Made by a program: the position numbers and the translations under genes. A stretch of DNA of 64,000 nucleotides from assembly GCA_015680685.1 (NCBI GenBank), contig MNCI01002616.1, positions 192,378-256,377 of the forward strand. Reading direction: 5' to 3'. Source of the DNA: Gnetum montanum (taxonomy: Eukaryota > Plantae > Gnetophyta). Below are positions 33,721-64,000 of the stretch, in pieces. The notes below the pieces were generated by a model. The model saw only the letters and a list, made by a program, of their open reading frames with translations, was not told the DNA's origin and made no database searches. How positions within the stretch are numbered: position 1 is the first letter of the stretch; every line of letters starts with the position of its first letter.

Positions 33721-33781
33721 ATGTATTAGGACACAGAAGGCTCACAGAACTATCTTGACATGTAGCAAAGGCACCAAGAGG

Positions 33782-33798
33782 CCCTCCTTCTAGCGTCA
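33782..33798 (-). promoter_or_regulatory. PBS (tRNA-Asn), element D
   Basis: Plus-strand CCCTCCTTCTAGCGTCA, 6 nt from the LTR end. Confidence 0.85.
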
Positions 33799-33804
33799 AA
33801 AAAT

Positions 33805-35513
33805 TGTAGCAACCGAAAACATCGATGGCTGTAAGAACGCCAAGGTCGGCGGACACAATAGCTCCAACCCCGTGCCCATGGGAGAGCGGTGTTGGGTGTG
33901 TCTGAACATGGGGTGCCCTGAATAGTTTGGTCGATCAGACAGGGACTTACATCAATGTCGATATAGCCTTTTGCAATATAAACTATACAAGCTACGAGAT
34001 GGTGCTTATGGGTAATTACAACGAGAAAAAGAAAGGGACTAAAAAAATGCAACAATAATGCGAAATAGTGAATAAACGTAAATGCGATAATGATATGAGA
34101 CGATGCTTGAAGGTAAACAAAATAGAAATAATACAAGGAAGTTAGATACTAAAAAAGAGGCAACAGAAGATATAGTTAGGAACATGCACCACTTCAGAGC
34201 TACAAATCTATCTGGTCAAGGCGTGGCACAATCGGTTGCATGACGTGACAGAGTGTAGAAAGTTCCGAGAGTGACCAAAGTGTACTGGGAAATAGGAATA
34301 GCTGTGCACTTGGGCACAAACTTCACATGTATACAACATAGGTGTGATCCTACCAAGGTGGTAGAATGAGACCCTAGACTTTACGCTAGCCAATAGAAGT
34401 TCCTTTTACAGATTGTTGGCCTCTCCTTTTCTTTCCCCTATTGTGAGATTGCAAGTATTTCTCTTTGTTTGTTTCAGTTTAGGAGACTTCCCTTTTCTCT
34501 TTCTTTTTTTTTCGTAGACCCTTTTTGTGCTATTTGATAGGCTATTTATAGGGCTGAAGGTAAGCAAAGATGACTGTTTGAATACTTTGTTGTTGTAGAC
34601 TTGTGCCAACTTACTAGCGTTACTCGAGTCATTTGTGACTGTTGAGCTTGCAAGACCGTTGTGATGCAAGCAATAACTACGATCCTACCACATTGTGACT
34701 GCACCACCAGCTCCTAGAGACATGTGTCAATGGTCCAATTGAGGTGGAGTGCATTGATGTCGCACGGCCACCTGCCTGTCGCGCTGTGTTTTGCAATGTG
34801 GCTTGCTTATCGTGGCATAGCACCTTGCCACGTGTCTTGCCGTACATCACATACTTGCTACATGATGCTACACTACGTAGTGTAGTGTAGCATAGCATAG
34901 CATAGCGACTGGGACAGTTTTGCTAATTTTCAGCTTATTCTGCCATAATGCAAGTTCTGTGGACTTCGCTAATTTTTCCTTTCGAACCGCCTTCTGTTCC
35001 TTTCTGCAGGATTGCTACACCTTGCTGCGCCATGTAGCTCAGCATAGCGTAGCAACAGACATGGTCCACTACTTCCTAGTGAGAAGGGACATGACTGCAG
35101 AACTCGAGATTGGATGAGGGAGGTGAGTAGTGAAGTTGTTGCTATGCTACACCATATGTCATCGCGTAGCGTAACATCTCATTTCTCCATTGTTTTCTAA
35201 GGCTTGCTATGCTACACATCATAGCGTAGCAGGCTTTGTGAATTAGAAAACTTGCTGAACTACTTCTCCTATGCACCTAGGCTACTGTCGCTGATTCTGG
35301 ACATCATTTCTGAGCAGGCTGCCGGCTATTCAGACTACTTTGGCGGGCGAGTGGGTTGGTACGGAACCCGTCCATGCCTAAAGTAGAGAATTTACGAAAC
35401 CGGCCATCCTGGACCCAGAACATTCTTTTCCCAATGGACTACTATGGTGCCATATGGTCTACAAGAGCCTGGTGAAGCCAAGATGACCCCGCATTTTCTT
35501 TTAGGATGTTTCA
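33805..35513 (-). repeat. 5' LTR of element D
   Basis: Direct repeat of 17077-18784; TATA on the minus strand at 34543-34550. Confidence 0.95.
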
Positions 35514-41000: not shown

Positions 41001-41289
41001 TTTTTTCAACATAGCCAACATAGCCATTCTCCACATAATTATTTTCAACATTTAACCTTAAAACCTTAAAGCAACAAAGCCATAAACAACATATATAGCC
41101 AAAACTCAAGCTGAAAATTAAAAAATTTTAAAGTGATATAGCCATGGACACACTATGTGGCATAAATATTAAGACAATAAACCAAAAATGTTAAAATGTC
41201 TAGAACTCAAGTATTGGCCAATATGGGTCATACAACATCCAAACATAAACTAAAAGAAAACATCAACAATGACTATCACATCAAGCATT

Positions 41290-44200
41290 AGGTGGTGCCA
41301 AGGGGACATCCAGAGGGGGAGGAGATGGTGCATCATCATCATTGCCTACACCATTGGAACCTCCAATATCATATGGTGCCTATGACATAACAACACCAAC
41401 CAATCAGTAACTAGCATAACTAAAACCATGACATAAAATCAGGTAAGACAAAAATTTAAAATATAAAACATAAATGTCATTAAACCTATGGGAAATCTAG
41501 CTCTACAAACTCTTTAGCAAGAAAGTGAAGGTTAGTCTCCAAATTTTTGAGAAACTAGTCTTCTATCATGTTTTCCTAGTTAATGTTTTAAAAATTAATG
41601 TCCATGTAGATGTTGGTCCTATCTACATGTATCCATGATGGAGGCTCCCATGAGACTATAGCTATAGACACCTCATCCATAGTTGTAGTAATATATGGGG
41701 TAGGATAATTAACTACTATTAGAGTTCTTTTAAAGAGGTTGAAAACACTCTCATCCTAGATGCCTTGGATAAATAGATCTCTCTTCTATTGTTTAATTAT
41801 CTTCCTCTTTATCCAGTTTAGGTATCCCTCTCAATCAACCTTATACTTATGCTTGTGATTCTTTTGTTTCTTACCCCACTCTAGGATCCAAGCACTATAA
41901 TCCTTCCAATCATGGGTCTTTTAGAAGATCAAGTCCATCAATATCTACTTCTCATGAAACTCCTTAGAGAGGGAAACCTTGTCATGGATAGCATGCTAGT
42001 AGTAGGCCCACGTGATCTCCTTACTCTTAAAGATCCCTAAGTTATTCACTTGTGCTTTTGCAAAGGCCCTATGATCCTTTAGATCTTGGATCTTCTTGGC
42101 TTACTTTTTATTATCCTTCTTCAAGGCCATAACCTATTTCTATAGAGATTCATTGGACATCTAAATCTCCTATGAAGCTTTTGTGCATGACACTACTAGA
42201 TCAATGGTAGGTTCATACAACTTCAAGGGAACATGTGGGATGTTAGGAGGAAGGTTAGGTAAAGAGTCAAACTCCATGTCTTTGGATAGGTTCCACATAA
42301 CTAATGGCACTAAAAACAACAAAAATATAACCATAAACATGATGTACAACCTAAGGTAGCCATAGCATAAAAATATAACTCATAGCAATATAACTAAGGC
42401 ATAGAAAAACATAGTTCTTACCAATCTCCGGTGTAACCTATTGTAACTAACAAATGATTTCCTTTGCCATCTTGTGCATGAATTCCATCTTGTTTGAGAC
42501 CTCTACCCATGGTTTCATCTGAAATGTGGATGTAGAGGCCTCTACTAGTGGCTCAAGAACTACAATAAGCATAACAATTGTTAGTTAAGTAAGAAACTAC
42601 GATGTTAAAAATAAAACCATAGACAACAAAGAGTAGATAATAGGTATACCTATGTTCTTGTTCTTATTCTCATTCTCATACTCATTATCATTACAAATAT
42701 CAATTGAAGGCTTCCTAGGTAGTGACTCACCGAATAAGGTGTCAAGATCATCCATATCTTGTTGCAAGAGTGCCTCCTCTACATGCCTTTTTTCCTCCTC
42801 TACCTTAGTGGCTATGCAACTCTGCTCCTCCTCCTCAACATGTGTGTGTGCCTCCTCCACTTTCCTATGTTCTTCTTTTGCAATGGCAACTTGGGCTGCC
42901 AAGTTCCATCACTTATCTATAGCCGTAACCCATTAGACAAGTTAGCACATATAGCCATAGGACATAACTAGTCTAAAACATACTTAAAATGTACTTCTGA
43001 TTACCTGATATATGGGTGGGATCTTGAAGATAATCCATTGCTTGGAGGATGGCTCTTTTACTAGTGGTGCTTTCACTGCTAGCCATTTCAAATTAGTCTT
43101 GGTAGCCTAGTTTTCCTTTACACATAACCATTGGATCCCCTTGATGTTTTTTGGAACATAAGAGGTGCCTCCCCCATGCTATCAAGGGATTCACACCAAT
43201 TAACACCAAGGTTCTTGATGGTCATAGATAAAAAATTATCCATGTCCTTTGGTGGGTTCTGAGCCTACATTGTTCAATAAAGATGTTTTATTCAAGTCTA
43301 GAAGAGTTGTTTTGGGTCCTAGAACATCCATGATCAATTCCTCTTCACCACCAAGAATTTTTTGAACCTCTTTGGATAGCCTAAAAAAATGCATAGTGCA
43401 TGTGGACTATCATAGAAGTGTCCATGCAAAGTTTGAGGATTTTCTCTTTGAGGCCCATAGCTAAGGAAGTAGCCTAGTTGAAATGAGTCTCCTATGTCAA
43501 AACCTTCTTAAGGGTCCATCCTTATGTAATGCTAACTACCTTCTTTTACAATAACAATTTAGGGAAAGGCTAAGATCTAAAAAAATAATAGGACCACTTT
43601 GCTATCAAGGACAAGTCTGGAGTAACCTTTCTAGCACCAAACCACTCCTCAAATTTTACACAATGGCCAACCTCCTTCATTGGTTTGGTAGCAACTACTA
43701 TCCCATCAGCAGGATCATCAAATAAGTAGCAAAAGGTGGACACACTAATGGCAATGGTAATTGGCATGCTTCACACTATGATGTGGAACACATCAACTTC
43801 TGCATCAAAGGTGTCGATGAAGTTCTCCATCTTTGTAGAAGGAATGATAGGGCTAGGAACCATGAATACCTCAAGAAAACCTATACACACGATGTTTTCT
43901 TGAATGTTCTTAGGCACCTGCCTCCTCAACCACTCCTGCACTAGTCCCACCTCACTGAACGTTAGGATGAAAGTTTTCACAATACATCTGATAAGGGATA
44001 TGGTGACATCAATAGAAGTGGAAGGCCCTGTAAGTAAAAGACAAGTGGTTAGCATCAGTATAGCCTTATTTAGACTATAGAACACTTAAGACCCAAGTAG
44101 CCATAAAACCTTAGTTATAATATAGAAGGCCATTTCTTTTCTTACGTTTCTTCTTCTTGTTTAGAGAAGCTTGTGCATGGCTCTCAATAGTGATATCAAT

Positions 44201-44990
44201 ATCTCTAATGGACTTGGGAGGCACCCACCAACTATGTACTATTTTGGTAGCCACACACTTCTTGTAAACATGGTTAAATGTTAAATCTGGTGAGGTTTCC
44301 TCTTAGCTATTCAAAAATAGCATGTCTAATCTTGGGTCCTTTCATGAATTCACTCAACGTAGTGTGGGTTACTACCAATGTTTGATCATTCATAATCCAA
44401 ACTTGCTCATTAACCTTGTACTTGTAAGATGTATCTAAAATCAACAAGTTAGGAATTAGGACCAAATTAAATAAAGCCAAAACATTTAAACATATAGTAG
44501 CCATGCTTACCCCTATAATCAACACATGGTGCCTCAAGGATTCTAGAATAAGGAGTGGGCTCTTTGTGCCACCATTAAAGTATTATTCATGTTGTATCAT
44601 AAATACTCTAGCATCATCCAAATGTTTGAGAGGTACCGTGCACTAATGTTATTTGCTGGCTCTCCTACCACTCGAGTCTATGGATCATCGATTATGAACT
44701 AAGTAATCATATGTGTAGACCTAGGTAGTAGGGTCTTCACTATGATCGCAACCACCTCCTTAGACAAATGTGACCACATCATCACACTAAAATTCTAAAG
44801 AATATAGGCAAGAAAATACATTGCCCTTGGGCAGAATGATAGTGACCCCTTTTCTAGGTCCATGTTAAGAAGGGGGGTGTGGGTCATGGGTTGTTTGATA
44901 CAACATAAAATGCTAACCAGCTTGATCATGATGAGGACTAGGTTTAGTAGGACCTTGCAGTGGGAAGACATCAATACTATTAGAACCACA
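41290..44990 (-). pseudogene. Divergent antisense accessory gene of element E (NIF-like, PMD-like, coiled coil)
   Basis: LIMIKLVSILCCIKQPM...FLAYIL.NFSVMMWS and NIWMMLEY.YNMNNTLMV...NP match D exon 2; VQEWLRR...FMVPSP matches D exon 4. The 5' end was not resolved. Confidence 0.7.
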
Positions 44991-46043: not shown

Positions 46044-47750
46044 TGTAGTGACCGAAAACATCGATGGCTGGAAAGCACTGAGAGGTTGTCGATCATTGAC
46101 AGTCTTAACCCCATTTCCACGGGAGGGCCATGCTATAGATAGAATCGAAATGGGGTGCCCTGAACAGTCTGGTCGATCAGACAGGGACTTAGTCGGTGTT
46201 AATATAACCTTTTGCAACGTGTGATTTGAAAATGAGGCTGATAGCATGAAGTAATGCTTGAATGTAAAAAAGGCAAAAAATAGTGTAAAATGTAATAATA
46301 AATAGGAGACAAAGTAAAATGTAGTTAGAAAAATGCACCTCTTCGAAGCAACAACTTCACTCTATTAAGATGGATACAATCGATTGCACAACACTGAGAA
46401 GTGTAGAGGTCTCAAGAGTGATTAAGATGTGTAAAGCAAGATGGTTGTGTGCTTGAATGCGGACTCAAGTGCTAACAATGTGAAGTGCCACTAAGGTGGT
46501 AGAAAAGAGTAGAACAAAATTCCAACTGAGAATGCTAACTATTTACAATGTCAAACAGAAAGCTTACAATGCCCAAGGTAGCAATGCTAACTTTTTTTTT
46601 TCTTGTTAGCCAACAAAATTCTTAGCCGACCAAATTGCTAGAACTAGACCAAATTGCCAAAAATAAGAAGAAGCCGACCCATCGAGCGTTGCTCATTGGG
46701 GTATTTATAGGACCAAGGGCACACGAAAGATGTGGTTTGGATGTCACATGCCCTGGGTTTGCGTTGACCTATCTATGCTGCACATGCCTGCATGACCGTT
46801 GGGTGAGTCTGCCATGCCGTAATTACAAGCCTGCCACATTGTAATTGCACTGTTAAAGCAACGATGCAGTTAGGTGAAGTGCATTGATGTAGCGTAACTG
46901 CTTGTCATGCTCTGCTATGCTTTGTAGCATAGCATGTTTCTCATGGCGTAGCATCTTGTTACGTTATGCTACGCTATGTAGCATAGCGTAGTGTAGCGTA
47001 GCTACCAATTCAAAACAAGGATTTGCATTGTGTCCTATTGCATGCATTGGAAGCATTTGAAGCGCATTGTCTGTTTATTGCGTATTTGCTAGGCTATGCT
47101 ACACTATGTAGTGTATCATAGCGTAGCAGCTGTCCTTAGTCGCAAAAAATGTCACTAGTCTACAAACTTTTCCTTTTGCATGTGAAGCTTGAGAACTTGC
47201 TGATCTGGCCCTTTGAGATGCCTTTTGTCACCTTCGTAGAATTGCTACACCTCATTGCACCATGTAGCTTAGCGTAGCATAGCAGCCAACATGGCCTGTT
47301 TCTGGCCAAGTTCATTGCTTTCTGCAAGGGAACATTGCTGAAGGACTTGAGTTGCGCGAGGGGACTAATCATCTAGCTTCTGCTACATTGTGCTACGTTG
47401 TGTAGCATGGATCTATGCTTCTGGAAACATCTACTGGAGTTTGCTATACTATATAGCGTATCGTAGCATAGCAAAACTCCTTGACTTAGAAAACTTGTTG
47501 AGGCGTTTTGTGCTTTCTGAGCGTTACCAACAATTCCATGCACCGCTCCTAAGTGCGCTGTCAGCTAGATGAACTACCTAGGTGGGCAAGCTAGAGAATC
47601 TGTTTAGCCTGTTGACACCTAGGGTAGAAAACTTGCTAAACTGGACAGCCTAAACATTAGAGCATCCATCTCCTGAAGAACTACTGTAACACTGCGCAAA
47701 TTGTGAAGACTTGGTGAAGCAAGTGTGCCTTCAAATTTTGGGGTGTTTCA
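46044..47750 (-). repeat. 3' LTR of element F
   Basis: TGTAGTGACC...GTGTTTCA; direct repeat of 62695-64000. Confidence 0.92.
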
Positions 47751-47763
47751 TTGGTCCCTCTTT
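47751..47763 (-). promoter_or_regulatory. PPT, element F
   Basis: TTGGTCCCTCTTT = AAAGAGGGACCAA on the minus strand. Confidence 0.85.
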
Positions 47764-48834
47764 ATCAACCTTTGGAGAATGAGCTTGAGAGATGTTGACA
47801 AAGAATATGAAATACCACGGAAGGCATAATGCTAATGTTGCTACTCGGTGATCGTCAGGACATCGCTTGGCTACACTTGAGAGTGTTGCATTGATTTATG
47901 CAGGAAGAAAGGATGAAGCAAGGAGGAAGGAGGCTCAGGAAAAAAGGTAAAGATGAGGTTTAGTAGAGTCCCTCATTGGAGTGCTCATGAGGGAGTCGTT
48001 TGCGTTTTCATGTTTACTTTCGTCGACCTTCGACCTCTTGTAGGATAGGTGTTTCTTTTCTTGGATGAGTTGTGTTACATCCATGTGGGGTTTTGACCTA
48101 CCTACAGAAACTTCACATGTGGCGAGATATGTTACACACATCATGGAATCTGCACTTTGAAGTGGCCAAGCTAGTTGAGGTACTCACTTCGCGACACCGT
48201 AGCATTTGCTGCTATGCTAAGACATGCTTCCGGCTGCACCCTGTAAGCACAACAGAGAGCGAAATAGCCATGATGCAAAGAAAGGACAGAGGTCTTGCTT
48301 GCTATAGATGTTGTTGAAGCTCTTGGACACCTTTGCTAGTGTTTGGTATCCAAAGAAGGAAGGCCAATAGCAGCCTTGGTAGCACCAGGGTGGAGTAGCT
48401 AGCGTCGAAGGAACAGGGAGCTACTGTGAATGCAGATGCTCTGGAATCCCTACCAAGGGCATGCATTCTTAGTTCAACTATGGGATTAGCTACCATATAG
48501 CTAAACGTCATGCAAGCCTAGGCATCGGTAGGGAGCTAGAGGGTAACAATATTGTGGCTGGTCCACAATACTGCCAAAAATCCAGCCGCAAGCACTGACC
48601 AAGGAACTACCATCAAGGTGGTGGGCCATGGCGAAGATAGGTCCAGAGGGCCAGTGTGATGTCATACAACATCTTCGAAGGGTTAGCACAATACCAAGGG
48701 TGACATCGTTACATACGTTCTCATTGCGTCGTGAACTGCATTATGAAGCTTCAACATCTATCCCCCACGTTGGCATTGCGCACACTTGTTCAATGTGTAC
48801 TTGGTGCAGATGCACGCTAGGGATGTGACGCAAA

Positions 48835-49110
48835 CCCAGTTTAAGGTCCTGGTAGACCGTGTGCTGGTTTAGGGTCCCAGTAGACCATTGTGCTGGTTTA
48901 AGGTCCCAACAGACCGTAAATGCTAGTTTAGTATCATAGCAAATGTGTTGCACCAGTTTACAATCATAGTGAACTAGTTGTATTGGCTTAAGGTCCTAGC
49001 AGACCCTACATGCCAGTTTAATGTCATAGCGGATGATCGTCGCTAGTTTAACTTCATAGCGGATGTTGCTTGTTGTTGCCAGTTTAACATCATAGTAAAC
49101 ACTGCTTGTT
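48835..49110 (-). repeat. Post-pol tandem array, element F
   Basis: Plus-strand GC(T/C)AGTTTAANNTC(A/C)TAGC units, ~9 copies. Confidence 0.85.
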
Positions 49111-49121
49111 GTCGTCATGCT

Positions 49122-52100
49122 TTAGATGTAGTATGACTTGAGCTATGAGTGATTCACTGGGTTGGCAAACCCATTGCCATCCATGTCCGCCAACTTAAAG
49201 GCTCCATTCCAAAAGACTTTGGTGACCATGTATGGTCCTTCCCAGTTGGCTGAGAATTTGCTCACATGCTCGCAGATAGCTTTGAGGACAAGGTCTCCCT
49301 TCTGTACTAGCCGTCGATGCAAGTCTACATGGTTCTTTCACTGTTTCTTGCTCTGGTAGCGCTCTATGAGGCTCAACATCTACGCTTGCTCCTCCTCTAT
49401 TGAGTCAAGGTTGATAATCTATGACTCATTGTTCTGGGATTTGCTCACAACATTAGAGAGGATCATCTGGAGTGATGGTACTTGCAACTCAAGAGGCAAC
49501 AAAGCTTTAGATCCATAAACGAGATTATAATGGGTCTTACTTGTTGTGGTTCTTCACATCATCCTATAGGCCCATAGAATGTAGAGGGTTTGCTCATGCC
49601 ACCACCTATTACTATTGCTAAGCATCCACTTCAGCAAGTTGATGATGGACTTATTTGTAGCTTCAGCCTACCTGTTCACCTACGGCTAATACGGGGAAGA
49701 GAATGATTGCCTGATGCCTAGATCGCTGCAGAAGGTTTGGGTTTCTATACTACTAAATTGTGGTCCATTTTTGGTTACAATAGTCATCAGAAGCCCAAAT
49801 TTTGTCATAATGTTGTCTAGGATGAAGTGGTAGATTTGTTGAGATTTCATCTTCCTCAGGGGATAGCTTCCACCCACTTAGTAAAATACTCAATGGCAGT
49901 GATAATGAAGCTATTCCCTATGGAGGACTTAGGTGTGATAGTTCCTATGAGGTCTAGTCCCCATCATTGGAAAGGCCATGTGATTTGCGTCGGGTGCAGG
50001 TCCGTAGGTGAGACATGTATAAGATTTGCATGTCTCTGGCATGTGTCACACGTCTTGACTTTTGACATGTAGTCATGCTTCATATGGGGCCAGTAGTACC
50101 CTAGGCGTTTAATTTTCATAGACATAGCCCTAGGTGCTATGTTTCCACCACATAGTCCTTCATGCACTTCATTAACTACCCTCTACGCCTGCTCCTTACC
50201 CATGCATGCTAGCAATATCCCGTCATAGGAGCGTCTACACAGGGCATCATTTCCCATGAGCGTATATTGCCAAGCATGCTTACGGATTGCATCTCTCTAG
50301 GTAGATGTTAGTCCTCTTGGGGGTTCACCGTGTTGTAGGTAGGCTTTAATGTTAGTGTACCACTCCTGAGTATCCGTAGCACTGATAGGCTCAGTACATT
50401 CAACAATCAAAGTTGGAAAATTTACGAACGAGTGTGGTGGAATATTTAAAGCAAGGGTGGCTCAAGCATCTACTACAGTGTTATCGTTGCATGGCACGTG
50501 TTGCACATTTGTGGTTGCAAATTGCTTAAGCAGGCTTTTTGCTAGATCACGATAGGGTTGTAGGTGTGTAGCTTTGCAGGTGTAGACCTCAGTGATTTGA
50601 TTCACAACTAGCTGTGAATCACCATAGATTGCCAAGTGTTGTATGAATAGTGTTTGGGTAGTTGAGAGGCCTCTGAGTAGCCCCTCATACTCTGCCATGT
50701 TTTTGATGTAGGGGAAAACAAAATGATAAGCAAACAGGTGCATTTCCCCAGAGGGAAACGTAATGACGGCAGCTGCACTACCTCCTCACATGGTTGAGGA
50801 AATGTCAAAGTGTAAAGTAGCTTCCAAGTGCGATGGGACGATGTTGATAATGCCAACATGCTCGTCCAGGAATCTAGGATCTATGGTTGCACGGTCGTCG
50901 ACAAGTGAGGCCGTGAGTTGTGTTTCTATGGCTTGACCCTTAGTCGATGACTAGCTTACATAGTGTAGGTTGAACTCTGTAGTTACTGCTTTCTATCAAG
51001 CTATCTGACTACTTTCATATAGGTTGTTAGTGATAGCCCTGAGTATGTTGCTTTTTCAAATGATGTTAATCATACTACAAAACAAGTACTACCTCCACTT
51101 TTTTAACACGAACACTAAGGCTAGGCAATTCCTCTTCACTTCATTTTATTTTTCCTTATGTGCTATTAATGTGTGACTTAGATAATACACTGGTATCTCT
51201 AAACCATCATCTTTTTTCTAACATAGAAGTGCTAGGAGGTGGCAAGGTGGCAAGGTAGATGAAGAAAGGCTTATCCCTCTATGGCGGATGCACAGTTGGG
51301 ATGTGCAAAAGCCCTTCCTTCAAGTTATCGAAGGCTTGTTGACACTAGGTTGTCCACTCGAAGTTAACCCCTCTCTTCAGAAGATGTTGCATGGGTTGTA
51401 ACTTGTCAGTCAACTTTACTATAAACCTTTGGATGAACTGTACCCTACCTTGCAAACTGCGCAACTCTTTAAGATTTGCAGGAGGTGCTAGGTTGACGAT
51501 GGCCTTAACCTTGTCAAGGTCCATCCATATTCTAGCCTTCGATACCACGAACCCTAACATGCATCTAGTTTTTACTCCAAAGACACACTTCTTAGGATTA
51601 AGGCACAAATCATGCATTTGACAACACTTGAGGACTACCCCTAGATTGCGTGGGTGATTAGTGGCTTCTTTGGACTTGATTGCTATATCATCCATGTAGT
51701 CGTTTAATGTTTCTAGGATGTAGGCACTAAAGATGTAAGTCATGGTTTGTTGGTAGGTTGCTCTGATGTTCTTAATCCCAAAAGGCATCATGGTGTAGCA
51801 AAAGGTCCCCCATGGGGTCATGAAGGTTGTTGTTAGCTGATGCTGCAGGTTGATGCGAATTTTGTTGTAGCCGGAGAAACTATCCATGAAGGATAGCAGG
51901 GCATGGCCAGTCATAGTGTCGATGAGTTGATCAATGCTTGGAAGTGGAAAATCATCCTTGATCATTGCTTTTTTAGATCCTAGAAATCTATACAAATTTG
52001 TATTCATCTCGATTTCTTAGGAACCACAACGATGTTGAACACCCATTCCGAATAATCAATTGTGCAAATGAAACCAGCTTGGTATAACTTTGTGATTTCG

Positions 52101-52570
52101 TCCCTTCTGACTAGTGCAATTTTGTGTCTAACCTTATGAGATTTCTACTTGATGACCTTCATGCGTAGGTTTAGGATAATGTTGTGTTGTATCAGCCTTG
52201 GATCTAAACCCAGCATGTCACTGTATGACCATGTGAAGACTTTGATGTTGTCTTGCAGAATCCTGGCTATGTTTTCATGCGTCTGCATGTCTAGGAGGGA
52301 GCTATGTTTTAACATTTCTACTTCTCCCTTGGATGTGATCATAGGCATCTCGACGAGAGGGTCCTTAGTTACATCTCCAGCCTCTAAATCTAGAGTTTGG
52401 ACCAAATGCTCGGGCCAGTCTGGGGATGTTTCTAAAAATGCTATGATGCTAGCTGTGGTTGACCCCAAGTCAATCAGGTTGGGGTTCAATTTTCTTGTGA
52501 GCTTGCCATGTGGACCTCTTAAAGCTAAAGGCATGGAGAGATCATGATGGATTTCCATTTTTTGCTTAAC
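49122..52570 (-). pseudogene. pol: pol (RT-RH-aRH-INT) of element F
   Basis: KDDFPLPSIDQL, MPFGIKN, YMDD, AEYEGLL / GDSQLVVNQ (aRH), HEGLCGG/CDTCQ, WEGPY. Confidence 0.93.
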
Positions 52571-52779
52571 CTATCAAAATGAGATGAAAGCATGATCAAG
52601 AGGCACCTATTGGTAGTAATCGTGTATAACGAAAACTTGCAAAGCAATGCCAAGATGTAACTAGCGAAGTATGATGTAAAGATTAAAATTTTACCAATTT
52701 AAAGTTATGGCAAACTGATATGGCATGGAGATGTAGAGTTGCTAAATGGTGAATGTAAAACTATCGATGTGAAAATGTG

Positions 52780-53012
52780 AAGCTGCTAGTTTAGCGTCAT
52801 TGTGGACTGTGAATGTACAATAGATCAAAAATGCTAGTTTAGGTCTTTTTGGACCATTAAAGTCACTTCCACGTTAGGATTTCTAGTTTAAGGTCTTTTC
52901 AGACTAGCAACGAGAGTGGAATGCTACGCTAAAAATGCTAGTTTAAGGTCTTTTCGGACCGCGAAACTTGCAACTGTGTTGGGGTTGCTAGTTTAAGGTC
53001 TTTACAGACCAG
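52780..53012 (-). repeat. GGTC-N6-GACC-TTAAACTAGCA array upstream of the pol acceptor, element F
   Basis: About 5 spaced copies of plus-strand GCTAGTTTAAGGTCTTTTC(A/G)GACC. Confidence 0.8.
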
Positions 53013-53351
53013 TAACGAAAATTATGTATTTTTTTCATTTTTTTTGGAAAGCGAGAAGTTAGCTTGAAGCATGTCAAGGTTTTAATGCCAACAGTGCTAT
53101 GGTGTCATGGCAAGCATGCTACGCTATACGGCACACTCCGCATTAAATGGAGAGAGAGAGCACCAAGTTTCCCTTTTTCACCATTACGACCATAAATAGG
53201 GATTAAACCTTGGTAAGCTTGTCATTCTCACCGTAAGACTGCAGAGCCCATATTAGGAGCACAAAGAGATTTCAGAGCATGGAGTGATTATGCTAATTAG
53301 TGAGCAAGGCAATTGTTTGCATAGTGATGAGGGAAGTCTGCAAGCAGGACG

Positions 53352-56300
53352 ATGGCTCCAAAGAAGGAACGTACCCACTTGGCACTTGCAAAGGTTGAGG
53401 AGGTGAAGAAAACCCTAGGGTGCATGACATAAGCATGCATTGAAGCACAGGAGGACATGCCATTGACTTGGTAGGCCACTATGCTTTCTCTACTTCTTTG
53501 TTATTCTATTATCATTTTTTGTATTTGTTTTCTTCTTTGTATCCTAGTCTTAGTCATCTATGTTTTTTGTCATCATGTTGTTTTGGCCTTTAGATCGCCG
53601 CTGCCATTTTGGCCATGGTAGATGCCTAAGCGCTATGCTATCTTTGCATGTAAGGTTGCTTAAATTGCCACCACCACAGTTGTCATAACCGTGGGGGTTT
53701 AGAAATTTTAAGTTACTTGGCTTTTGAATGACATAGTGTAGGATCCTTATGAGGGTTGGGCCATGCATAATGTGATAGTGAGACATGTGTTCTATCGGGG
53801 CATATCATTAATTTCCCTGTTAGGGTTAATTTCTTTGTTGCTACGCTAGGCTATTTTCGTTGCACTATTGCTTTCATGTTCTTGCTACGCTATGTGTGGG
53901 AAGAGGGTTATGCCATGCTATATGCATGAAATGCTAGGTATTGCTATGTTGCGTGTGCATTGCATTTAGACATGATGCTGATACTTGCTGGTTGTGTTGC
54001 GCAAGATGGGGCTAAGGCCAATTTTGATTATCTTAGAAATTGTAGGGGTCCTGTGTTATGTAGGAAAACCTATGGCTGATGTTCCTCCTCCCCGTATACG
54101 TGTAGGAGAGTGGGGTGTCTGCTTCAAGAAAGAAGCACAGGAATTCCTACATTACCTCCTCCGACACTTCAGTGTGATCATTTGGTCATACCTAGAAGAG
54201 GAAGAGGCGACTGTCATAACATAAGCCATATTCCCTAGGGCAAGTCGAGGCATCCTGAGGTTTTTGACGAATGGGGCAATCATTAGCAGGCAGGGAGAAG
54301 GATCTAGTTAATACCCCACAAGGTTAAGGCGTTTAACCTAGATCTACGATATGCCTGAGTATGGTTACTACCATTCTTATAACACACTATTCGTTGCACA
54401 TTATATGGAAATGTGCTTCCAAAACCCACCAGAAACTATCTACTGTGTTGGTAGGTGAGTTTTTTGTAGTCTTGTTCCACTGTGTTGTGCGACGCTTACC
54501 ATATTGGCTAGATGCTAATGGTATTTTTTTGTTACTAGGTTCTACATTAACAAGGAAGGGCTTCATGACCAACTGGGTCTGCTAACTATAGCATAGATGG
54601 CCTTGCAAGAGTTCTCTTCTGCTAAGAACCTGTAGGTGGTGTGATTGGTCAATGCGAGGGTGAATACCACACCTACCCAGAACTATACCCCATTCCCTAT
54701 GATCAATGCAAGGGGTCTAGTTGGCTGGATGATGGGTGGGTGCAAGCTTTCAAACCAATCACTATTGACCAAGTTCTAGTTAGTCTTCTGTCGTTCCCGT
54801 TACCGTATAGGCCCAGTAGGCCAAATAGTAAGTGTTGCATGCTTAAGTGTCTTTGCAATCCTTGGATTTTCTATGTTTCTATGCTAAACGTTTTTCGTGA
54901 AAACTATTATAGGGACAAAAATGCCCCAGGAGATGATAGTGGTGATCGTCGAGACACAGAAGGCAAACATCTACTTCAATTATGGAGAAGTAGATGTGAG
55001 CCAATGCTAGATAAACGGTATGGCTTCTGACTCCTTGGTCCAGAATATCCAAAAGGCTAGGCTCATAGATCTATTCTTAGCTCCAAATTCAAGCATTCCT
55101 ATAGCTGAGATGCTCTCCCTGATCAGCTCCTTTTCTGACAAGGCCGACGGCTTTCACATGTGCATACGGGGCATGCGGGTGGTCCTTGAAATCAATGACT
55201 AGCTATTCATGGACCTCTTTGGTGTCCCCGTCCATGGCATTCTCATAGGGTCAAAGTCCAAGAGGGAGCTGACCTTTTAGAAGAAGGACATTCAGGAGTG
55301 GTTAGGGATTGCCAAGGAGCAAAAGGGGCTCCCCATGGAGAAGCTTAAAGAAGGACCCACCAGGGAGGTTTACCCTATCTTCCATGCTTGCACATTCCCC
55401 CAACTTCTTTCCCAAGGGAAGGTCCTAGGGATTGAGCAGGCCTGAGGTCATGGAGGAGGGGGCCCATTACAACTGGGTCATGTTTTTATGTAAAGGCTTG
55501 CAAACTGAAATCTTGGAGCTCCATAAGAAACTAGAGTCCCATTCCAATATACATTATGCCTTTTACATAGCCTATCTGAAGTGTTTTGCATAGTTTCTAG
55601 TGGTTCACAAGAATGGAGCCTGGGTCATGCAAAATCATGGCCAAATTTCTAGACCATGGATTCGCTAGATCCTCTAGACCACTCGAGCCCAAGATTCCGC
55701 AGAGATAATTAGGGAGTCTTTCTCTCTGATGACTAAGGATCGGGTGGCCCGCAACTTTCACGGCCAAGATAGCATAGGAGAGATGCCCCCTACTGTAGTT
55801 GGTAGTGTGTCATGGGGGGAACGTCTCATAGCCAAGACTATGGCCAGTAAGTTGTAGCAGAAGAGTCCTTCTCCAGCTAAAGAAACCCTTCGCATGGAGG
55901 AAGAGGAGGGGCAGAGACTGCAGCTTAAACTATAGAGGATGCAACCCCCCATTGGTAAATGCTTTTGTTTAATGCCCATTTTGTTATTGCCTACTATGCT
56001 AGGCATCATAGCGTAGCATAGCACCTGCTTTAAGCTAACTTATTTTGGACTAATGAAAACATGTCTCTTGACTGGCAAAGGAGGAAGAAGAAGAAGAAGA
56101 AAGCAATGAAGAGGTGTCAGCCCCTAAGATAGGGGTGACGAATAAAGACTCGAAGGCCCCAGTCTTAGAGAGAAGGGTCTCGGTCAAGAAGGGAAGAACT
56201 CCTATCGCTAAGGCAGGGGCTCTTGTTATCAGGAAAAATCCTCCTACTGACAAGGAGAGAATTTTTAAAGATGAAGAAGTGTCTCCCTTGAATAAAAAGG

Positions 56301-57773
56301 ATGCTATTCTCTCAAAAGGAAAGGCACCAATGCATGAAGAAGAGACCCGTACAGACTTGGCAGGGACTTCTACCAAGGCTTCCACCATTGTTTTGCATAA
56401 GTAAGAGGGAAGACCACAATTGGATGCTGGTGAGTTCAGCAACATGTCTACCTTGTCATACCCATTCTGGCCATTGCTAATATGTTTAATTATTTGATAG
56501 GCATCATTGTTGATACTGCAGGACCCCCTCTGACTTGTGCGGAATCATGGTCCAAGATCCTTGATAAGTTTATGTTCATGTAGGGAATCGTTGATGACAT
56601 GATTAGCTGCCTTCAGTAGGTGGACCCTGACGTGGGTAAGTAGTAGTGTTAGGTGCTCTCATGTTCCTATACTAGAATTTCTTGGTCTTGCTAATCTTGC
56701 TATGCTAACGTGACTACTATGCTCTTTGTGTCATGGCAGCCTCTCGGCTCAAATGGGACCTAGCACAACCTTTGAAAGTTGTTGCCATGCCTACAGTCTT
56801 ACTTGAACTGACCAAGGTGTCTCGTTGTGCATACAACGAGATCTGCAAATGCTCTTTGCACTTGGCATGCTCCTTGTGGGAGTATAAGCACATCAATGAG
56901 GACCTATGTAAATGGCTCCAAAAAGCTGAGCAAGAGAAGGCCGACCTGAGCACTGAGGTGGAGGATCTCAAGTCAAGGAATGAATTCCTTATAGCCCGTG
57001 ACACTAATAATGAGGACTGGTGCATGACTGTGATAGATTATGCTAGATTTTGGAGAGTCACACATTAAAGCATCGAAGCCACCCATGAAATAATAGAACA
57101 ATAGATGCAAATGGACTTGTTGGACTAGAAGTGTCAGGATTTGAAAGATTTCAATGCCAAGGTTTACGAATGGGGGCAGTCCCAGAAAAACCATAAACAT
57201 ATGTATAAACTGGAACATGCCACTACTCGTAAACTGTACAAGGACGTTTTTGTGAAGGTGTTTACGTATAAATCATTCATAAATTCCATTGACACTTCTG
57301 AGGCCTATGCCAAGTTTAAAGAGTAGGTAAAGGTTACAGAATCTCATGATTGGAAAGTGGACCTTCCCACAAGAGAAACCACAACCACCTCCTTTTCTCT
57401 AGGACCATTGAGGTGGACAACCACCGAGAGGGAGAGAGCTACTACAGACGTTGAACCAGGCAACAAGCGTTGGGTGGACATCACGGTAGAGGAGGTCTAG
57501 CACGGCCTTGGGCTTAGTTTAGACTGGATACCCTTCAAAGCCCTTCTTAGGTTAGTTGCTTTCTACTATATTAATGCTTATGCTCTATTGTAGCTTGCGT
57601 GTGTTGCTTTAGCTGACCACTTCATTCCTACGTTGTAGGCTCCAGATGAGGACGTAGGGCTCATAGAGGGAAGGACTGAAGGATTAGTGGAATACAATGC
57701 CAAGGAAGGTGATGCAAAAGGAAATGATGCAGAAATGAATGGTGAAGATGATGCAAACAAGGAGAACCCATGA
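53352..57773 (+). pseudogene. Antisense ~8-exon accessory gene of element F
   Basis: MAPKK start, phase-2 first intron as in D; LIILEIVGVLCYV...EFLHYLLRHFSVIIWS; YHSYNTLFV...QNPPET; HYNWVMFL; last exon the same length as in D (132 nt + TGA). Confidence 0.8.
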
Positions 57774-57937
57774 TAGCATGGGATTTTTAAAATTTTGAAT
57801 TTTTGTAAAATTTTTGCAAATGTTGCCCAAAAGGCAGAAATTTTGAATGAAGAAGATAATTTTAGAAAGGAAATTTATTTTGCGTTAACTTGTGCATTGT
57901 TTACATGCTACATTTTGTGTAAAATTTTCATGCTTGC

Positions 57938-58315
57938 ATGTGCTAGTTTTAGGCCATTTCGGGCCATTACTAGTTTTAAGCCGTTTTGGGCCATTACATA
58001 GTTTTAGGTCATTTTGGGCCATAGCATAGCATTCCATAGAGATAATACATTAACAACTTGAACATTGCTAATTTTAGGAAATTTTGGGCCATTGCTAGTT
58101 TTAGGCCATTTCAGGCCATTGCTACTTTTAGGCCATTTCGGGCTATAGCATAGTTTTAGGCCATTTTGGGCCATTGCTAGTTTTAGTCCATTTCATGCCA
58201 TAGCGTAGTTTTAGGCCATTTCAGGCCATAGCATAGTTTTAGGACATTTAGGGCCATAGCATAGTTTTAGGCCATTTCATGCCATAGCATAATTTTAGGC
58301 CATTTCAGGCCACAA
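57938..58315 (-). repeat. ~24-29-bp tandem array GGCC-N6-GGCC-TAAAACT, element F
   Basis: About 12 plus-strand units TAGTTTTAGGCCATTT(C/T)(A/G)GGCCAT. Confidence 0.9.
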
Positions 58316-58479
58316 CGTTGACAACTTGAACATTGCCAACTGGTAACTTATGTAGACAGATGGATTGTAAACAACGCAAGATGGTAATGTGCGAAGAATA
58401 ATCACTAGGCAGGAAGCAGTGGGGTTGCTATGCTATGCATAGCTACTTCTTGATCCATCGTGGATTGAGTGGAGCGTAA

Positions 58480-61400
58480 GGCCAGGGCACTTTGCCAGGG
58501 CCTTTTTTTGCATCATTTTCCCTCACTTGGAAGGGCAACTAAACCCATGTGCTTTCGTTTTGGAAACTAACCTACTGAGTCGATTCTCTTGCTAGATGGT
58601 TAGTGTGTGTGTAAGCAGGTGCTTCATTCTCAAAGGTTACGACCTCTAAGCCCTGCTCTATGTCTACATTACTGATAGCCTATGCTACTACCTCATCACC
58701 ATGGATCACCACCTCCTTGCCTACGTATGGTAGGTGGATTTCTTGGTGTATAGGTGAGGAGACAACCCTAATTTGTGCTAACCACGATCTCCCCAAGATT
58801 AGGTTAAACCTGGGCATTTCCTCAACCACGATGAATGTTGCGTTTGTGGGGAACTGGTCCCCTGCCATGAAGTCTATGTGGGCTGTGCCCTTCACCAGGA
58901 CATGTGCCCCATTGAATGACTTCAAGCATGATGTCATTGTGGGTTTGACCTCGTCGACCAAGCCCAATTTTTCCACAATAGGGAATGGGATGACATTCGT
59001 GGCAACCCCATCATCAACATGTACCCTTTGGATCTGATGTTAACTGACCCGAATTATGATGAAAAGGGGTGTTGTAGTCACCTGGCCCCTTTCGGGATCT
59101 TCCCTAATGGCATCGTCGCGGAAGGTTAGTTGAGGCAGTTCTGGCTCTACAAGTGCAGAGGGGAGCATGATCAAGTAGATCACTTCCTCTTCCATTGGCA
59201 TGTCTTCATTGATTGGAGTCACTATCAACATGCAAATCAGAGCCTCATGGTGTGATATGGACATCATGATTAGGTCATACAAGCTCAAAGTAGTGTTTTT
59301 CTATTTTAGAGCTTGCTTAACCTAAGTGAAGGCATCCAAGAGATCTTGTTTGTCCCCCTCTTTAATGCTTTCCTCCTCTTCTATTCATCCCAAAAGATAA
59401 ATTTCCCGAGGAGGGGCGATTTCGGGTCTAGGTTCAGGCCCATTTTGGTAGGGTAGCACGGATTGTACAGTTATAGCGACGTTCCTCTTTGGTGACAAGG
59501 GCGTGGACATAGAGGGTGAAGACATAGGCTTGGAAATACTAGGGACAGTACTTCTTCTCAATGTCTCTCTTACGAAACACACTTCTCATTTTTTAGGACA
59601 AGAAGGTTGTTCAGCTATCTTATGTTGGACGGGGGCTGTCAAAGGAGTAGCCCCTTGATGATGAAAGGAGCTAACAGTGTTAACAGGCTAAGTAGCTCGA
59701 TTTTGCTAACAGGTGGCATGGAGATGGATGCTCGTGGAGGGACTCTCAGAATGAACGGCTATTGCAAGCTTCGGCCAACTGCTGGTGGTGTTGGTGCACT
59801 ACGTTGAGGCACACGGACCACGAATGGCTGCTGGGGTGACCTAGGATCACTATCAATACCGATGGCATTGATGATGTAACCGACATTGTTGGTGTTGAGG
59901 GGGTCTATGTAGACATGCATAGATTGGTTCTTAGGGCGTACTGGGTTATTTTCATCCAATACCAGGTTTCCCTGATCGATCAATCTCTAGATGTCATCCT
60001 ACAACACCAGACAGTAATCTGTGTTGTGACCACACTATTGGTGATAGTCACAAAATCTATCTAGCCTGAAATCCTTAGGAATTGGGAGCTCATTAGGCAG
60101 GGCCAAAGAGGGGTTCCTATGGAGCTCACAGTAGTGTTGATGTCTCCTGATTGCTTCTTCTGACATCTTCTTCTATTGGATGTGCCCCATTGCTAATAGC
60201 TTCTTCAGAAGTTCTGAAGGCTTGAGAGGTAGTGGGATGTACTTTAAGTGATCTTTACACTCAAAGATATTTTTGGGTTGCACAGATGTCTTACGTGCAA
60301 GTATTGGGGGTTGCGGTGCATTGCCCTGCTTGGGCACAGGGTTAGCTACAGGTATGGCTGATTTCTTATTGTTCTTGTTACCATTGTTACTAGGTTTAGG
60401 CTTTGTCTCGGTTTCCACAACAGCCACTATGGTTGTTGGGGCCTTACCCTTGTCCTTCTTTGTTAACATGTTTTTGTATCCAGTGTAGGCTAGGTCTTTT
60501 CTTGCCTCAACCATGTCATATATACTCTTAGTCTGAGCAAAGGCTTGACTAAGAGTGCAAAGGGTGAGGTAGTACAGTTTAGACTGGATAAAGTCATTCA
60601 CTACACCCTTAAAGATAGCTAGTAGGTGGGCCTCCACAATGGGCTCATGGATTTTATTAAGGGTTACACTCCATCACTGGATGAACTTCTGGACTGGGTC
60701 CAAAGGATCTTACTTCACACTCATCAACTGGTCTAGCGTGCTTCCCGCCTTCAAGTTATACTTGAAGCACATCACAAACTGGGTCAAAATCTCTTCTAGA
60801 GTTAAAATGGATGAGTGTGGTAGCACTTGGTACCAATCCAGGGCTTTCCTAGCTAAGGACATAGCAAAGACATGAATAATCGTGTGCAGCCATTGTTGCA
60901 ACAGAAGGGATTCAGACCTAAAGGTAACAAGATGTGCATTGGGATCTCCCTTCCCATCGTACTTCATGAAGTGGGGGAGGGACATCCCTGGGGGTAACGT
61001 CAGATCAAGGATTACAGAGCTGATGGGATCATCCTAGTAAAAGTCCATGACTTGTACCATGTCAAACCCAATAGCTTTGAGGCATTTTATTTCCTCAGTG
61101 AGGGTTTCGATAAGCTAGAATGCTTGGTCTAGACCCTGCAATGTTGTGGATGGTTGGGAAACTACCGAGGTAGCTCCCATCTATGGAATGGCAGGGGTGG
61201 CGGTATGACCTATCAGCAGTACCGTTGGGATAGCCCCTGCAAACGATGTTGCTTGCACTATCCACCATCCAGCAAGTGGTGCTGTTGGAGTAGCAACCAT
61301 AGGTTGAGCTACTAGATAGACTGCTTATGTCATCGACGACATAGACCATAGCCCCGTATTGGGTTGTATCATTTGCGGGGTTTGGTAGGTTTGAGAATGA

Positions 61401-62242
61401 ACATAATGAGACATCTGCGATGGTTGTGGGATAGGTGAAGAAGTGAATGGGGTCCACCATGTGGATGGGCCTGGGCTTGCCATGGTGAGTGGAACAGACG
61501 TGAATGTAGGAATGGAAACGAAAGTTGTGTACGAATGTGAAGTAGGTACAATATGCGGCAGGGTAGTCATGATTGGTGTGTGATGTGCTATAGGAATTGG
61601 CTGATGAACAGTTTGCGGAGGCATCATTGCTGTAAATGAAACAAGGGAATAAGTGCATTGATACGCTAGGAGGGTGACACGGCTACCCATTACAGTTATG
61701 ATTGTAGGCTGTGGGAGTGTAGGCATGATCACAAAGGGAGTGGTGATAGACAACAAATTGGCCTAGAAGGACTGGGTAGGAGGGACAAGAACGGGGTTGG
61801 TTTGACCTCCCTCATCAGATTGGAAATTGAGTTCCTCCTATCCATCCTAGAAGGTGTCATCTTCGTTAGACACTGTGTCCTATTACTCCCTAAGCCTAGC
61901 CAACTGGATTAGCTAGTCTATAAGCCTTTGATTTGCCTATGTCAAAGGTATGGAAGCATCAGGATTGGGAACAGACTCCTTCTCATCATAGTAAGCAAAC
62001 TCGAAGCTACGTTTGCCTTCAAATTCATGTACATCCAAGGGAAGGTTTTCTTGAACCTTTTCATAGACGAAATTATAGCACTCATGTTGCTGGGCCAAGC
62101 CCTTAGGTCCCCAGTTTTGGATCCTGAGCGATCGATGTGTTTCCAGCATCAGGTTAAGCTATTGTTCGGCATCAGCGATGCCTTGAACTGTGATGGGAAC
62201 TTCAACATTAAAGGTGTTAGCAACGGTGCTTGGGGAAGCCAT
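58480..62242 (-). pseudogene. gag: gag-protease of element F
   Basis: ATG at 62242; KYDGKGDPNAHL, FCDYHQ.CGHNTDYC, HVDDGVATNV, NLILGRSWL. Confidence 0.9.
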
Positions 62243-62671
62243 TGTTAAGCTAAATAGTTTTGCAAATGGGAAGAAGCAAAGAAATTGGAAAGCTAAACAG
62301 TTTTGCAAATGGGAAAAAGCAAAGAAGTTGGGAAGCAATCAAAAAGGCTTTATGTCTCGCAGGGTTCCCAAGGAATTGTTGAAGCGACCGATCTATACCA
62401 CACGATGCTTAAAAAACTGCAAAAGGATGTCACGTTTACACTAGTGTGTGATAGGGTACAAAGCACGTGCAAGACTACCATAAGATAGGCAAGTTAGCTG
62501 GCGACTAGAGGCTTTATGTCCTATAGGGTTCTCGAGGAACTGTCGAGGCAACCGATCTACACTGCATGACGTGTAAACAACCACAGATGGGTGTCAAGTT
62601 TACGCTAATGGAAATCAGGGTGCAGAAGGCTTACAGGGCTACAATGACATGTAGAAAAAGGCACCAAAATG

Positions 62672-62688
62672 CCCTCCTTCGAATGCCA
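62672..62688 (-). promoter_or_regulatory. Degenerate PBS (tRNA-Asn), element F
   Basis: Plus-strand CCCTCCTTCGAATGCCA adjacent to the LTR. Confidence 0.7.
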
Positions 62689-62694
62689 GAAAAC

Positions 62695-64000
62695 TATAGC
62701 AACTAAAAATGTCAACAGCTGGAAAGCACCGAGAGGTCGTTGATCGTTGATAGTCTTAACCCTGTCTCCATGGGAGGGCCATTTTGGATAGAATGGAAAT
62801 GAGGTGCCTTGAATGGTCTAGTCGATTAGATAGGGACCTAGTCGATGTTAATATAAACTTTTGCAATGTGTGATTTGAAAATGAGGTTGATAGCACGAAG
62901 TAATTCTTGAATGTAAAAAAGGTAGAAAATAGTGTAAAATGTAATAATAAGTAGGAGACAAAGTAAAATGAACCACTTCGAAGCAACGACTTCACTCTAT
63001 TAAGATGGAAACAATCGGTTACACAACACTGAGAAGTGCAGAGGTCTTGAGAGTAACCAAGATGTGTAGAGCAAAATGGCTATGTGCTTGAACGCGGACT
63101 CAGGCGCTAACAATGAAAAGTGCTACCAAGGTGGTAGAAAAGAGCAGAACAAAATGCCAACTAAGAATGCTAACTATTTACAATGTTAAACAAAAATCTT
63201 ACAATGCCCAAGGTAACAATGCTAACTTTTTTTTTGCTTGTTAACCAAAAAAATTGGTAGCTGACCAAATTGCCAAAACCGAACTAGATTACCAAAAAAA
63301 AGAACAAGCTAACCCTTTGAGCATTTCTCATTGGGGTATTTATAGAACCGAGGGAATGCAAAAGATGCGGTTTGGATGCCACGTGCCCTGGGCTTACGTT
63401 GACCTATCTATGTTGTACGTGCCTGCATGATCGTTGGGTGAGTCTGCCATGCCGTAATTACAAGCCTGCCATGTTGTAATTACGTTGTCAGAGAAATGGT
63501 GTAATTAGGTGAAGTGCATTGATGTAGCATAACTTCTTTCCATGCTCTGCTATGCTTTGTAGCATAGCATGTTTAGCATGGCATAGCATCTTGTTACGCT
63601 ACACAGCGTAGCGTAGTGTAGCGTAGCCACCGATTAGAAAAAAGGATTTGCGTTGTGTCCTGCTACATGCATTGGAAGCCTTTGAAGTGCGTTGTTTGTT
63701 TATTGCACATTTTTTATGCTATGCTATGCTACGTAGCATAGCAGTTGTCCTTAGTCGCAAAAAATGTCACCAATCCTCAAACTTTGCCTTTTGCACTGCG
63801 CAGCTTGCGAACTTGCTGATCCAACCCTTTGAGATGCCTCCTGCCAACTTCGCAGAATTGCTATGCCTTGTTGTGCCATGTAGCTTAGCGAAGCAGCCAA
63901 CATGGCCTATTTCTAGCCAAGTTCGCTTCTTTCTGGAATGGGACATTGCTAAAGGACTTGAAGTTAGGCAAGGGGACTAATCGTCTAGCTTCTGGTACAC
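62695..64000 (-). repeat. 5' LTR of element F (truncated by the window)
   Basis: Direct repeat of 46044-47390; TATA on the minus strand at 63337-63344. Confidence 0.9.

Follow-up and report, generated by a model that had tools for sequence, protein, structure and literature searches.

Many plant retrotransposons of the Tat type carry extra open reading frames (eORFs) in addition to gag and pol, and the published classes lie 5' or 3' of the polyprotein region (PMC6317226; PMC7264820; PMC11963269). Gene23 of the maize element Grande is an antisense accessory gene that has its own promoter and encodes a nuclear protein (PMC7264820). In Ogre elements, a spacer with a mean length of 274 bp separates GAG-PROT from the reverse transcriptase (RT) and has been demonstrated in pea and Medicago to act as an intron; an aRH domain between the RNase H domain (RH) and the integrase (INT) marks Ogre and Retand (PMC6317226). 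[quoted passage not shown] We analysed a 64,000-nucleotide stretch of Gnetum montanum DNA (assembly GCA_015680685.1, contig MNCI01002616.1, positions 192,378 to 256,377, forward strand), referred to hereafter as the window. Two Tat-type LTR retrotransposons within it, D and F, each contain an eight-exon gene on the opposite strand between gag-protease (gag-pro) and RT. The gene was maintained by purifying selection and is probably an accessory gene with its own promoter.

The gene in F (53352-57773), the subject of an original prediction made from the sequence, and its counterpart in D are both on the + strand, antisense to minus-strand host elements (Table 1). Intron phases in the model are 2, 2, 1, 1, 1, 1 and 0, and introns contain 40% T as compared with 24% in exons. 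Canonical dinucleotides are present at 25 of the 28 splice sites of D and F together, a count that is partly circular because the sites were first chosen by motif. Every junction motif that had been listed for the two copies was found at the homologous place; exon 1 is 119 nt in F and 110 nt in D, ending in phase 2 in both, and the last exon is 135 nt in both, as predicted. The shared box, the 12-mer CCATAAATAGGG, was likewise confirmed, with exact occurrences only at 24273 (D) and 53190 (F). It precedes an ATG-GCT-CCN-AAR start by 160 nt in D (24433) and by 162 nt in F (53352). The 'MAPK start' of the original prediction is indeed Met-Ala-Pro-Lys at both sites, but denotes these four residues and not a MAP kinase.

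Conservation extends upstream of the start. By blastn, positions 52989-53216 of F are 70.6% identical to positions 24066-24299 of D, and over its full length the upstream segment of F is 61% identical to D, as compared with 47% just upstream of it. We regard CCATAAATAGGG as a conserved TATA-like box and a candidate promoter of the antisense gene. Derivation of this promoter from an LTR was not supported: the LTR boxes are CTATAAATA, with flanks unrelated to those of CCATAAATAGGG, and blastn revealed no likeness beyond the box and tandem repeats.

Exons of D and F are 64.6% identical (2119 of 3279 aligned columns; 8 gap openings in 3345 columns), and introns 54.4% (539 of 990 aligned columns; 20 gap openings in 1125 columns). 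The contrast is significant (Fisher P = 1e-8), although with a pairwise aligner it shrinks to 67% for exons and 61% for introns. The introns had been described as not aligning. The better conservation of exons stands, but the cores of six of the seven introns scored above shuffles (z 2.1-8.1), the exception being intron 3 (z 0.2), and by this measure the introns are homologous and alignable. Mismatch rates at codon positions 1, 2 and 3 are 0.33, 0.27 and 0.46 (1076 codon pairs; chi-square P = 1.6e-20), and the ratio of non-synonymous to synonymous change (dN/dS) over the same pairs is 0.26 (NG86 method; bootstrap 0.21-0.32). NG86 is biased by transitions, so site classes were compared too. The Kimura two-parameter (K2P) distance between D and F rises from 0.36 for 0-fold to 0.76 for 4-fold sites and stands at 0.87 for introns; when introns are treated as if they were codons, their nominal 0-fold sites give 0.85-0.91. 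By the 0-fold to 4-fold ratio (K0/K4), the gene (0.48) was constrained about as tightly as gag-pro (0.51), with pol at 0.33; the gag-pro and pol values come from stop-free reading frames of D. The third-position excess, the dN/dS ratio, the lower rate at 0-fold sites than in introns, and the intron phases kept in a third copy (see below) together support purifying selection on a spliced + strand gene, as originally proposed; identity is not uniform across exons and introns.

All three copies are now broken. Among the aligned codons there are 11 in-frame stops in D and 23 in F. All 34 are TAG or TAA, as would be expected from methyl-C decay after insertion, and three stop positions are common to both copies, which would fit independent decay at mutable codons. 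F carries three frameshifts (exons 3, 4 and 7) and D one (exon 3), that in exon 3 being private to each copy. Three splice sites are damaged: the acceptors of introns 1 and 4 in F, and one donor in D. The description of F as a conserved gene copy thus holds for its structure but had missed the stops, the frameshifts and the two non-canonical acceptors; the reading in terms of selection, in itself supported, had omitted that the copies are passengers of LTR retrotransposons between gag-pro and RT. LTR distances imply about 0.15 neutral change since insertion (0.131/2 + 0.167/2), and therefore most of the divergence between D and F arose in replicating lineages. Selection acted while these lineages replicated; the present copies are dead.

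The host elements are 65-73% alike in a self-comparison of the window. D has LTRs with TG...CA ends (88% alike, K2P 0.131), a primer-binding site (PBS), a polypurine tract (PPT) and a target-site match, in agreement with Ty3/gypsy criteria. The LTR pair of F has a K2P distance of 0.167, with a PBS-like site adjoining the 5' LTR; its right end lies outside the window. Pfam matches on the minus strand are, in order, Retrotrans_gag (weak, E 0.0024), RVT_1, RT_RNaseH, RVT_3, Integrase_H2C2 and rve, which places aRH between RH and INT. In D, gag is at 31.4-31.9 kb and RT, RH, aRH and INT run from 23.6 down to 20.1 kb; in F, INT-aRH-RH-RT occupies about 49.1-52.57 kb and gag-pro about 58.43-62 kb. 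A protease (PR) motif, VDDGAA, was read off the translation of the gag-pro frame, whose stop is conserved (D 29187, F 58428). The RT frame is a different one and follows an AG with a pyrimidine-rich tract (D 23558, F 52570); in both elements the gene lies antisense within the 5.6-5.9 kb spacer so defined. The PBS-like sites of D (33788-33804), F (62678-62694) and a further element, X (10155-10175), have AGAAGGAGGG or a close variant in common, which we take to match tRNA-Asn, presumably a minority type in Tat subclades.

The third copy, E, is much more diverged and belongs to an older element. It follows directly on a + strand gag-pro (38.5-40.5 kb; 40-42% identical to that of D) and is again antisense to it. 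Its exons 2, 4, 6 and 7 share 22-32% amino acid identity with D and F (24-26% for exon 4), and exon 7 has the same length, 824 nt, in D and in E. Copy E provides a more independent test of the splice sites, because those of D and F were picked by motif. Twelve junctions could be placed, of which 11 are canonical, with phases as in D and F. Where the junction was fixed by gap-free homology to D or by equal exon length, six of seven are canonical, as compared with AG and GT backgrounds of 7.6% and 5.7%. The basic stretch KKKKRK at the end of exon 3 in this copy could be a nuclear localization signal. No pol for its element was found within the window, and its gag (38490-38620) appears to have lost about 0.9 kb internally when compared with F (the tblastx match jumps from F 61137 to 60217).

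Two other elements are without the gene. Element X retains gag-pro together with the first part of the spacer, has no pol, and is likely to be a non-autonomous Gag-PR-only derivative; its 3' LTR was split by insertion of D, and the LTR halves are 88% alike. X also contains a 38-bp tandem array of 6.2 copies (14457-14692) and a 255-bp duplication at the end of its 5' LTR (9682-10196). Element A has neither gag-pro nor the spacer gene and appears to be a pol-only deletion derivative. Related tandem repeats of 27-30 bp (TAGTTT..GGCC/GGTC type) are found at both spacer ends and in the 3' untranslated regions (UTRs) of the elements, on one strand within any given element, and the deletion in X joins two such arrays. 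They may be packaging or recombination signals.

Table 1. Positions in the window of the antisense gene copies, the retrotransposons and the associated repeats.
Feature	Position	Strand	Basis or remarks
Copy F upstream region: TATA-like box CCATAAATAGGG (53190) and predicted 5' UTR	52989..53351	+	similarity to D
F exon 1, 119 nt, phase 2	53352..53470	+	D counterpart 24433-24542 (110 nt, phase 2)
F exon 2, 450 nt, FCP/SCP (NIF) HAD-like domain, non-canonical acceptor in F	54005..54454	+	Pfam PF03031
F exon 3, 289 nt, one frameshift, ends in phase 1	54539..54827	+	D/F junctions
F exon 4, about 347 codons, one frameshift, conserved domain	54913..55954	+	49% amino acid identity D/F, dN/dS 0.25
F exon 5, charged low-complexity linker, non-canonical acceptor in F, start uncertain by a few nt	about 56076..56429	+	
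F exon 6, 114 nt, phase 1-1	56522..56635	+	equal length in D; dN/dS 0.10
F exon 7, long predicted helices (coiled-coil-like), frameshift near end	56740..57550	+	dN/dS 0.21
F exon 8, 135 nt, acidic tail and stop	57639..57773	+	equal length in D; about 30% D+E
Copy D	24433..28743	+	exons 24433-24542, 25045-25494, 25573-25864, 25912-26955, about 27070-27399, 27494-27607, 27703-28526, 28609-28743
Copy E, exons 2-8	41281..44954	-	tblastn to exons 2, 4 and 7 at 44.9-41.6 kb, E 1e-12 to 1e-22
Host element D, full length 18.4 kb	17077..35513	-	LTRs 17077-18784 and 33805-35513, PBS, PPT, 5-bp flanks matching at 4/5
Host element F, Tat-type Ty3/gypsy	46044..64000	-	3' LTR from 46044; 5' LTR from 62695, running off the window
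Element F spacer, gag-pro stop to RT frame, 5.86 kb, predicted Ogre-type intron	52570..58428	-	acceptor-like AG before RT
Element X	about 8295-16057 plus 35516-36066	+	LTR, PBS, gag-pro (10.5-14.1 kb), spacer-start repeats, 3' UTR-type repeats, 3' LTR
Element A	about 1270-7770	+	LTR-like region with TATA at 2925; acceptor-like AG, RT-RH-aRH-INT from about 3600
27-30 bp tandem repeats	52827-53018, 57941-58312, 48839-49059; 28900-29098; 47-410; 7110-7495; 14221-14275		

Exon 2 encodes a degenerate haloacid dehalogenase (HAD) domain of the FCP/SCP type. Only the D sequence exceeded the gathering score of the Pfam NIF family PF03031 (23.0 bits, cut-off 21.8, E 7e-5), with F (E 0.0096) and E (E 0.054) below it. 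A profile of the three exon 2 sequences matched a single PDB entry, UBLCP1 (3shq; E 0.016). None of the three copies has the DD pair of motif IV, and only D retains the first Asp of motif I (motifs I/IV: D, DLEGV/TRH; F, EIVGV/AHY; E, KLVSI/AQR; comparator, DLNGT/DDS). As the catalytic aspartates are lost, the domain is predicted to be inactive. The comparator (L001:2-775), which we presume to be fungal, is a metagenome contig with an ordinary intact 257-amino-acid NIF/FCP1-like HAD protein, unrelated to the elements described here, and was the one hit among 92 candidates in a metagenome scan with exon 2.

Exon 4 had no match in Pfam (D, first half of F, and E), in a PDB profile search or, for D, in a protein database. 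Its motif pattern may resemble that of the plant mobile domain (PMD; PF10536), for which no Pfam match was obtained either. An AlphaFold model of this exon was unusable (pLDDT, the model confidence score, 32). For exon 7, AlphaFold predicted long helices with modest confidence (residues 25-86, 96-118 and 122-173; pLDDT 65-81 over residues 51-120, mean 46.7). A PDB profile search with exon 7 gave nothing beyond E 0.16-0.95, recognition of a stretch of this exon in the ESM Atlas was under threshold, with no family, and uninformative, and a metagenome scan yielded none of 273 candidate stretches. No Pfam match to TRP28 (PF04195) at E up to 1 was found in the exon translations scanned, nor was a Pfam transposase domain. 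RT was found in none of six viral contigs.

We propose that RNA polymerase II would transcribe the gene from the TATA-like box, antisense to the element, and that splicing would give an mRNA for a protein of about 1,100 amino acids, consisting in order of the pseudo-phosphatase, the exon 4 domain (possibly PMD-like), a charged linker, a coiled coil and an acidic tail. The introns would survive reverse transcription, lying on the opposite strand to the packaged genomic RNA, presumably because the spliceosome cannot see them there. The spacer itself would likely be an Ogre-type intron enlarged about 20-fold; unspliced RNA would encode Gag-PR and be packaged with the gene, while a spliced minority would encode Gag-PR-Pol. 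The protein would most likely be a nuclear, non-catalytic phospho-protein-binding or chromatin factor, favouring transcription of the element or easing its silencing. Such a protein could be supplied in trans, which would account for the gene-less elements X and A.

Same-species raw sequencing reads were placed on F (80% likeness) and on D. The splice between exons 2 and 3, at the position predicted, is spanned by two poly(A) reads that derive from related copies, a number below the three-read threshold for listing. Several results weigh against an expressed accessory gene in a spliced element. These two reads are the only spliced ones, so that one of the seven introns is covered; among the 480 reads on D there was no listed splice joint. 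Of 1,235 reads on F, 991 are under 90% alike and four are at 99% or more, and they therefore derive from related copies rather than from F. Thirteen reads in sequencing run X1 span the 3' end of intron 1 unspliced; over the damaged acceptor of this intron in F, the relatives carry a canonical acceptor, unspliced there. The + strand bias in run X1 extends over gag-pro and pol, and is therefore not specific to the antisense gene. The PR-RT joint was absent from the 480 reads on D and the 1,235 on F, at a low depth of mostly 0-10, and no conserved minus-strand donor could be recognized near the gag-pro end of D, F, X and E. In copy E, the intron-2 acceptor is out of phase and exon 1 was not found, element F beginning at 46044, upstream of E exon 2. 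Protein searches at E <= 0.001 with D exon 2, D exon 4 and the exon 7 alignment found no homologue outside the window; exons 2 and 4 were compared with longer proteins and exon 7 with proteins of similar length, in word-based searches that are weak for decayed sequences. Finally, both derivatives, with gag-pro only and with pol only, lack the gene, and X has paired LTRs and so apparently moved without the gene in cis.

It is possible, though distinctly less probable than the reading above, that the gene is real and selected but that translation of pol starts at an AUG of its own on a distinct RNA, made by 5' leader splicing or from a bidirectional promoter common to the antisense gene, and not by Ogre-type splicing. 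In foamy viruses, the pol RNA is spliced from the 5' leader. D, F and A have a pyrimidine-rich tract, an AG and then an in-frame ATG before RT (23545-23560, 52557-52572 and about 3600-3625), the ATG lying 4-7 codons behind the acceptor-like AG, which could allow translation of Pol independent of Gag. A separate pol RNA would also suit the position of the antisense promoter, back to back with RT and only about 0.6-0.7 kb from its start, the failure to find a conserved donor at the gag-pro end, and the retention of acceptor and RT without gag-pro in element A. However, the frame from AG to ATG is open and in phase 0 in D, F and A, as fusion requires, and Ogre splicing at the GAG-PROT/RT position is documented (PMC6317226).

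A bolder and more doubtful proposal is that these elements form an unrecognized Tat lineage in which the Ogre intron became a 6-kb cargo bay holding a complete, host-style gene with seven introns. The encoded pseudo-phosphatase, fused to a diverged plant mobile domain and a coiled coil, would be a decoy either for host silencing complexes of the PMD-phosphatase type or for phospho-sites on the C-terminal domain (CTD) of RNA polymerase II, and so would counteract silencing; a single internal promoter would drive it and pol back to back. A host complex of this kind, MAIN/MAIL1-PP7L, reportedly acts in silencing, which we treat as a lead and not as evidence.

That the gene is a remnant of another mobile element, for example of the Mutator-like element (MULE) type with a spliced PMD-bearing gene, inserted once in the ancestral intron and kept as a selfish hitch-hiker or for its antisense RNA, is improbable. 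The host-type introns do suggest an origin at the DNA level, X and A lack the gene, and Tat PMDs are reported to be close to those of MULEs (PMC4408406). Nevertheless, protein-level constraint equals that on gag-pro and lasts to copy E, a transposase domain was not among the Pfam matches, and a passenger copied via the element RNA should be kept at the protein level only if its protein helps copying. It is very improbable, and largely refuted, that the codon signal is a shadow of minus-strand coding or a chance alignment on an over-read exon model: the intron-exon identity gap is modest and one minus-strand frame has a dN/dS of 0.38, but this frame shares its third positions with the gene frame, which explains that ratio, and has more stops (36/43 against 11/23 in D/F) and a lower BLOSUM score (1.86 against 2.45), while the other four frames give 0.74-1.11, the Pfam match is on the + strand, and the frame shifts between exons as a GT-AG model demands, copy E included. 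No more credible is a set of ordinary duplicated host genes lying among repeats, which the plant-typical intron sizes and base composition and the host-derived HAD domain would allow, but which is refuted by the LTR context, D and F lying between paired LTRs at an identical internal position on the strand opposite to gag-pol, copy E standing likewise to its gag-pro, and all three having decayed like the rest of the elements.

An accessory gene of this kind suggests that an RNA-replicating element can keep a seven-intron gene over deep divergence by antisense placement. Its recognizable host-derived FCP/SCP-like pseudo-phosphatase domain makes the role of a Tat antisense protein more testable. 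Such cassettes may be annotated as host genes, and may split gag from pol in repeat classifiers. Full-text literature searches, which did not extend to subscription papers or two large supplements of PMC6317226, turned up no report of a spliced, multi-intron antisense gene between gag-pro and RT.

The host elements resemble Ogre (Ty3/gypsy, OTA, Tat; TatIV/V) in their GAG-PROT frame with a stop, spacer and RT-RH-aRH-INT order, in the 5-bp target duplication and in size (18.4 kb here; 7.7-24.1 kb in Ogre) (PMC6317226). They differ in the spacer, which contains a gene and, at 5.6-5.9 kb, is about 20 times the Ogre mean, and in the place of the gene, Ogre eORFs being 5' forward (21%), 3' forward (6%) or 3' reverse (60%) and mostly PMD (PMC6317226). 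The Ogre PBS corresponds to tRNA-Arg in 89% of elements (PMC6317226), and the site here looks different. In structure the elements fit Ogre, of which they may be members.

The HAD-like domain preserves the core motif order and spacing of FCP/SCP (NIF, PF03031) phosphatases such as UBLCP1 (hydrophobic strand with D, F-L-x-F, W-S, L-x-x-I-W, N-T-L, N-P), but has lost the DD pair, is fused to unrelated domains and is borne by a retroelement. Fixation of a host enzyme domain in a Tat/Ogre-related family has a parallel in orchid Ogre-like elements with a captured AlkB demethylase ORF; in those elements the AlkB domain retains the residues that bind its cofactor, and a single ORF spans gag and pol (PMC9289625), whereas the present gene is spliced, lies nested between gag-pro and pol, and encodes an apparently dead enzyme.

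As in the antisense ORFs (aORFs) of Retand, Grande and RIRE2 (aORF-3R; TRP28, PMD-coiled coil), the gene is antisense to gag-pol and conserved like the element genes, with a coiled-coil C-terminal part, flanking tandem repeats and a promoter of its own, established in Grande and a candidate here (PMC7264820; PMC11963269; PMC4408406). The exon 7 helices resemble the coiled coil found alongside PMD or TRP28 in the eORFs of Tat elements (PMC4408406). In contrast, Retand-type aORFs are described as ORFs situated between pol and the 3' LTR, with introns unmentioned in the main text (PMC11963269), whereas this gene lies between gag-pro and RT, has seven introns and encodes a HAD-like domain, with no Pfam match to TRP28 or PMD. 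We conclude that, although its position and the lack of TRP28 place it outside the Retand aORF-3R class, the gene works in the manner of the antisense accessory genes known from Grande, Retand and Ogre.

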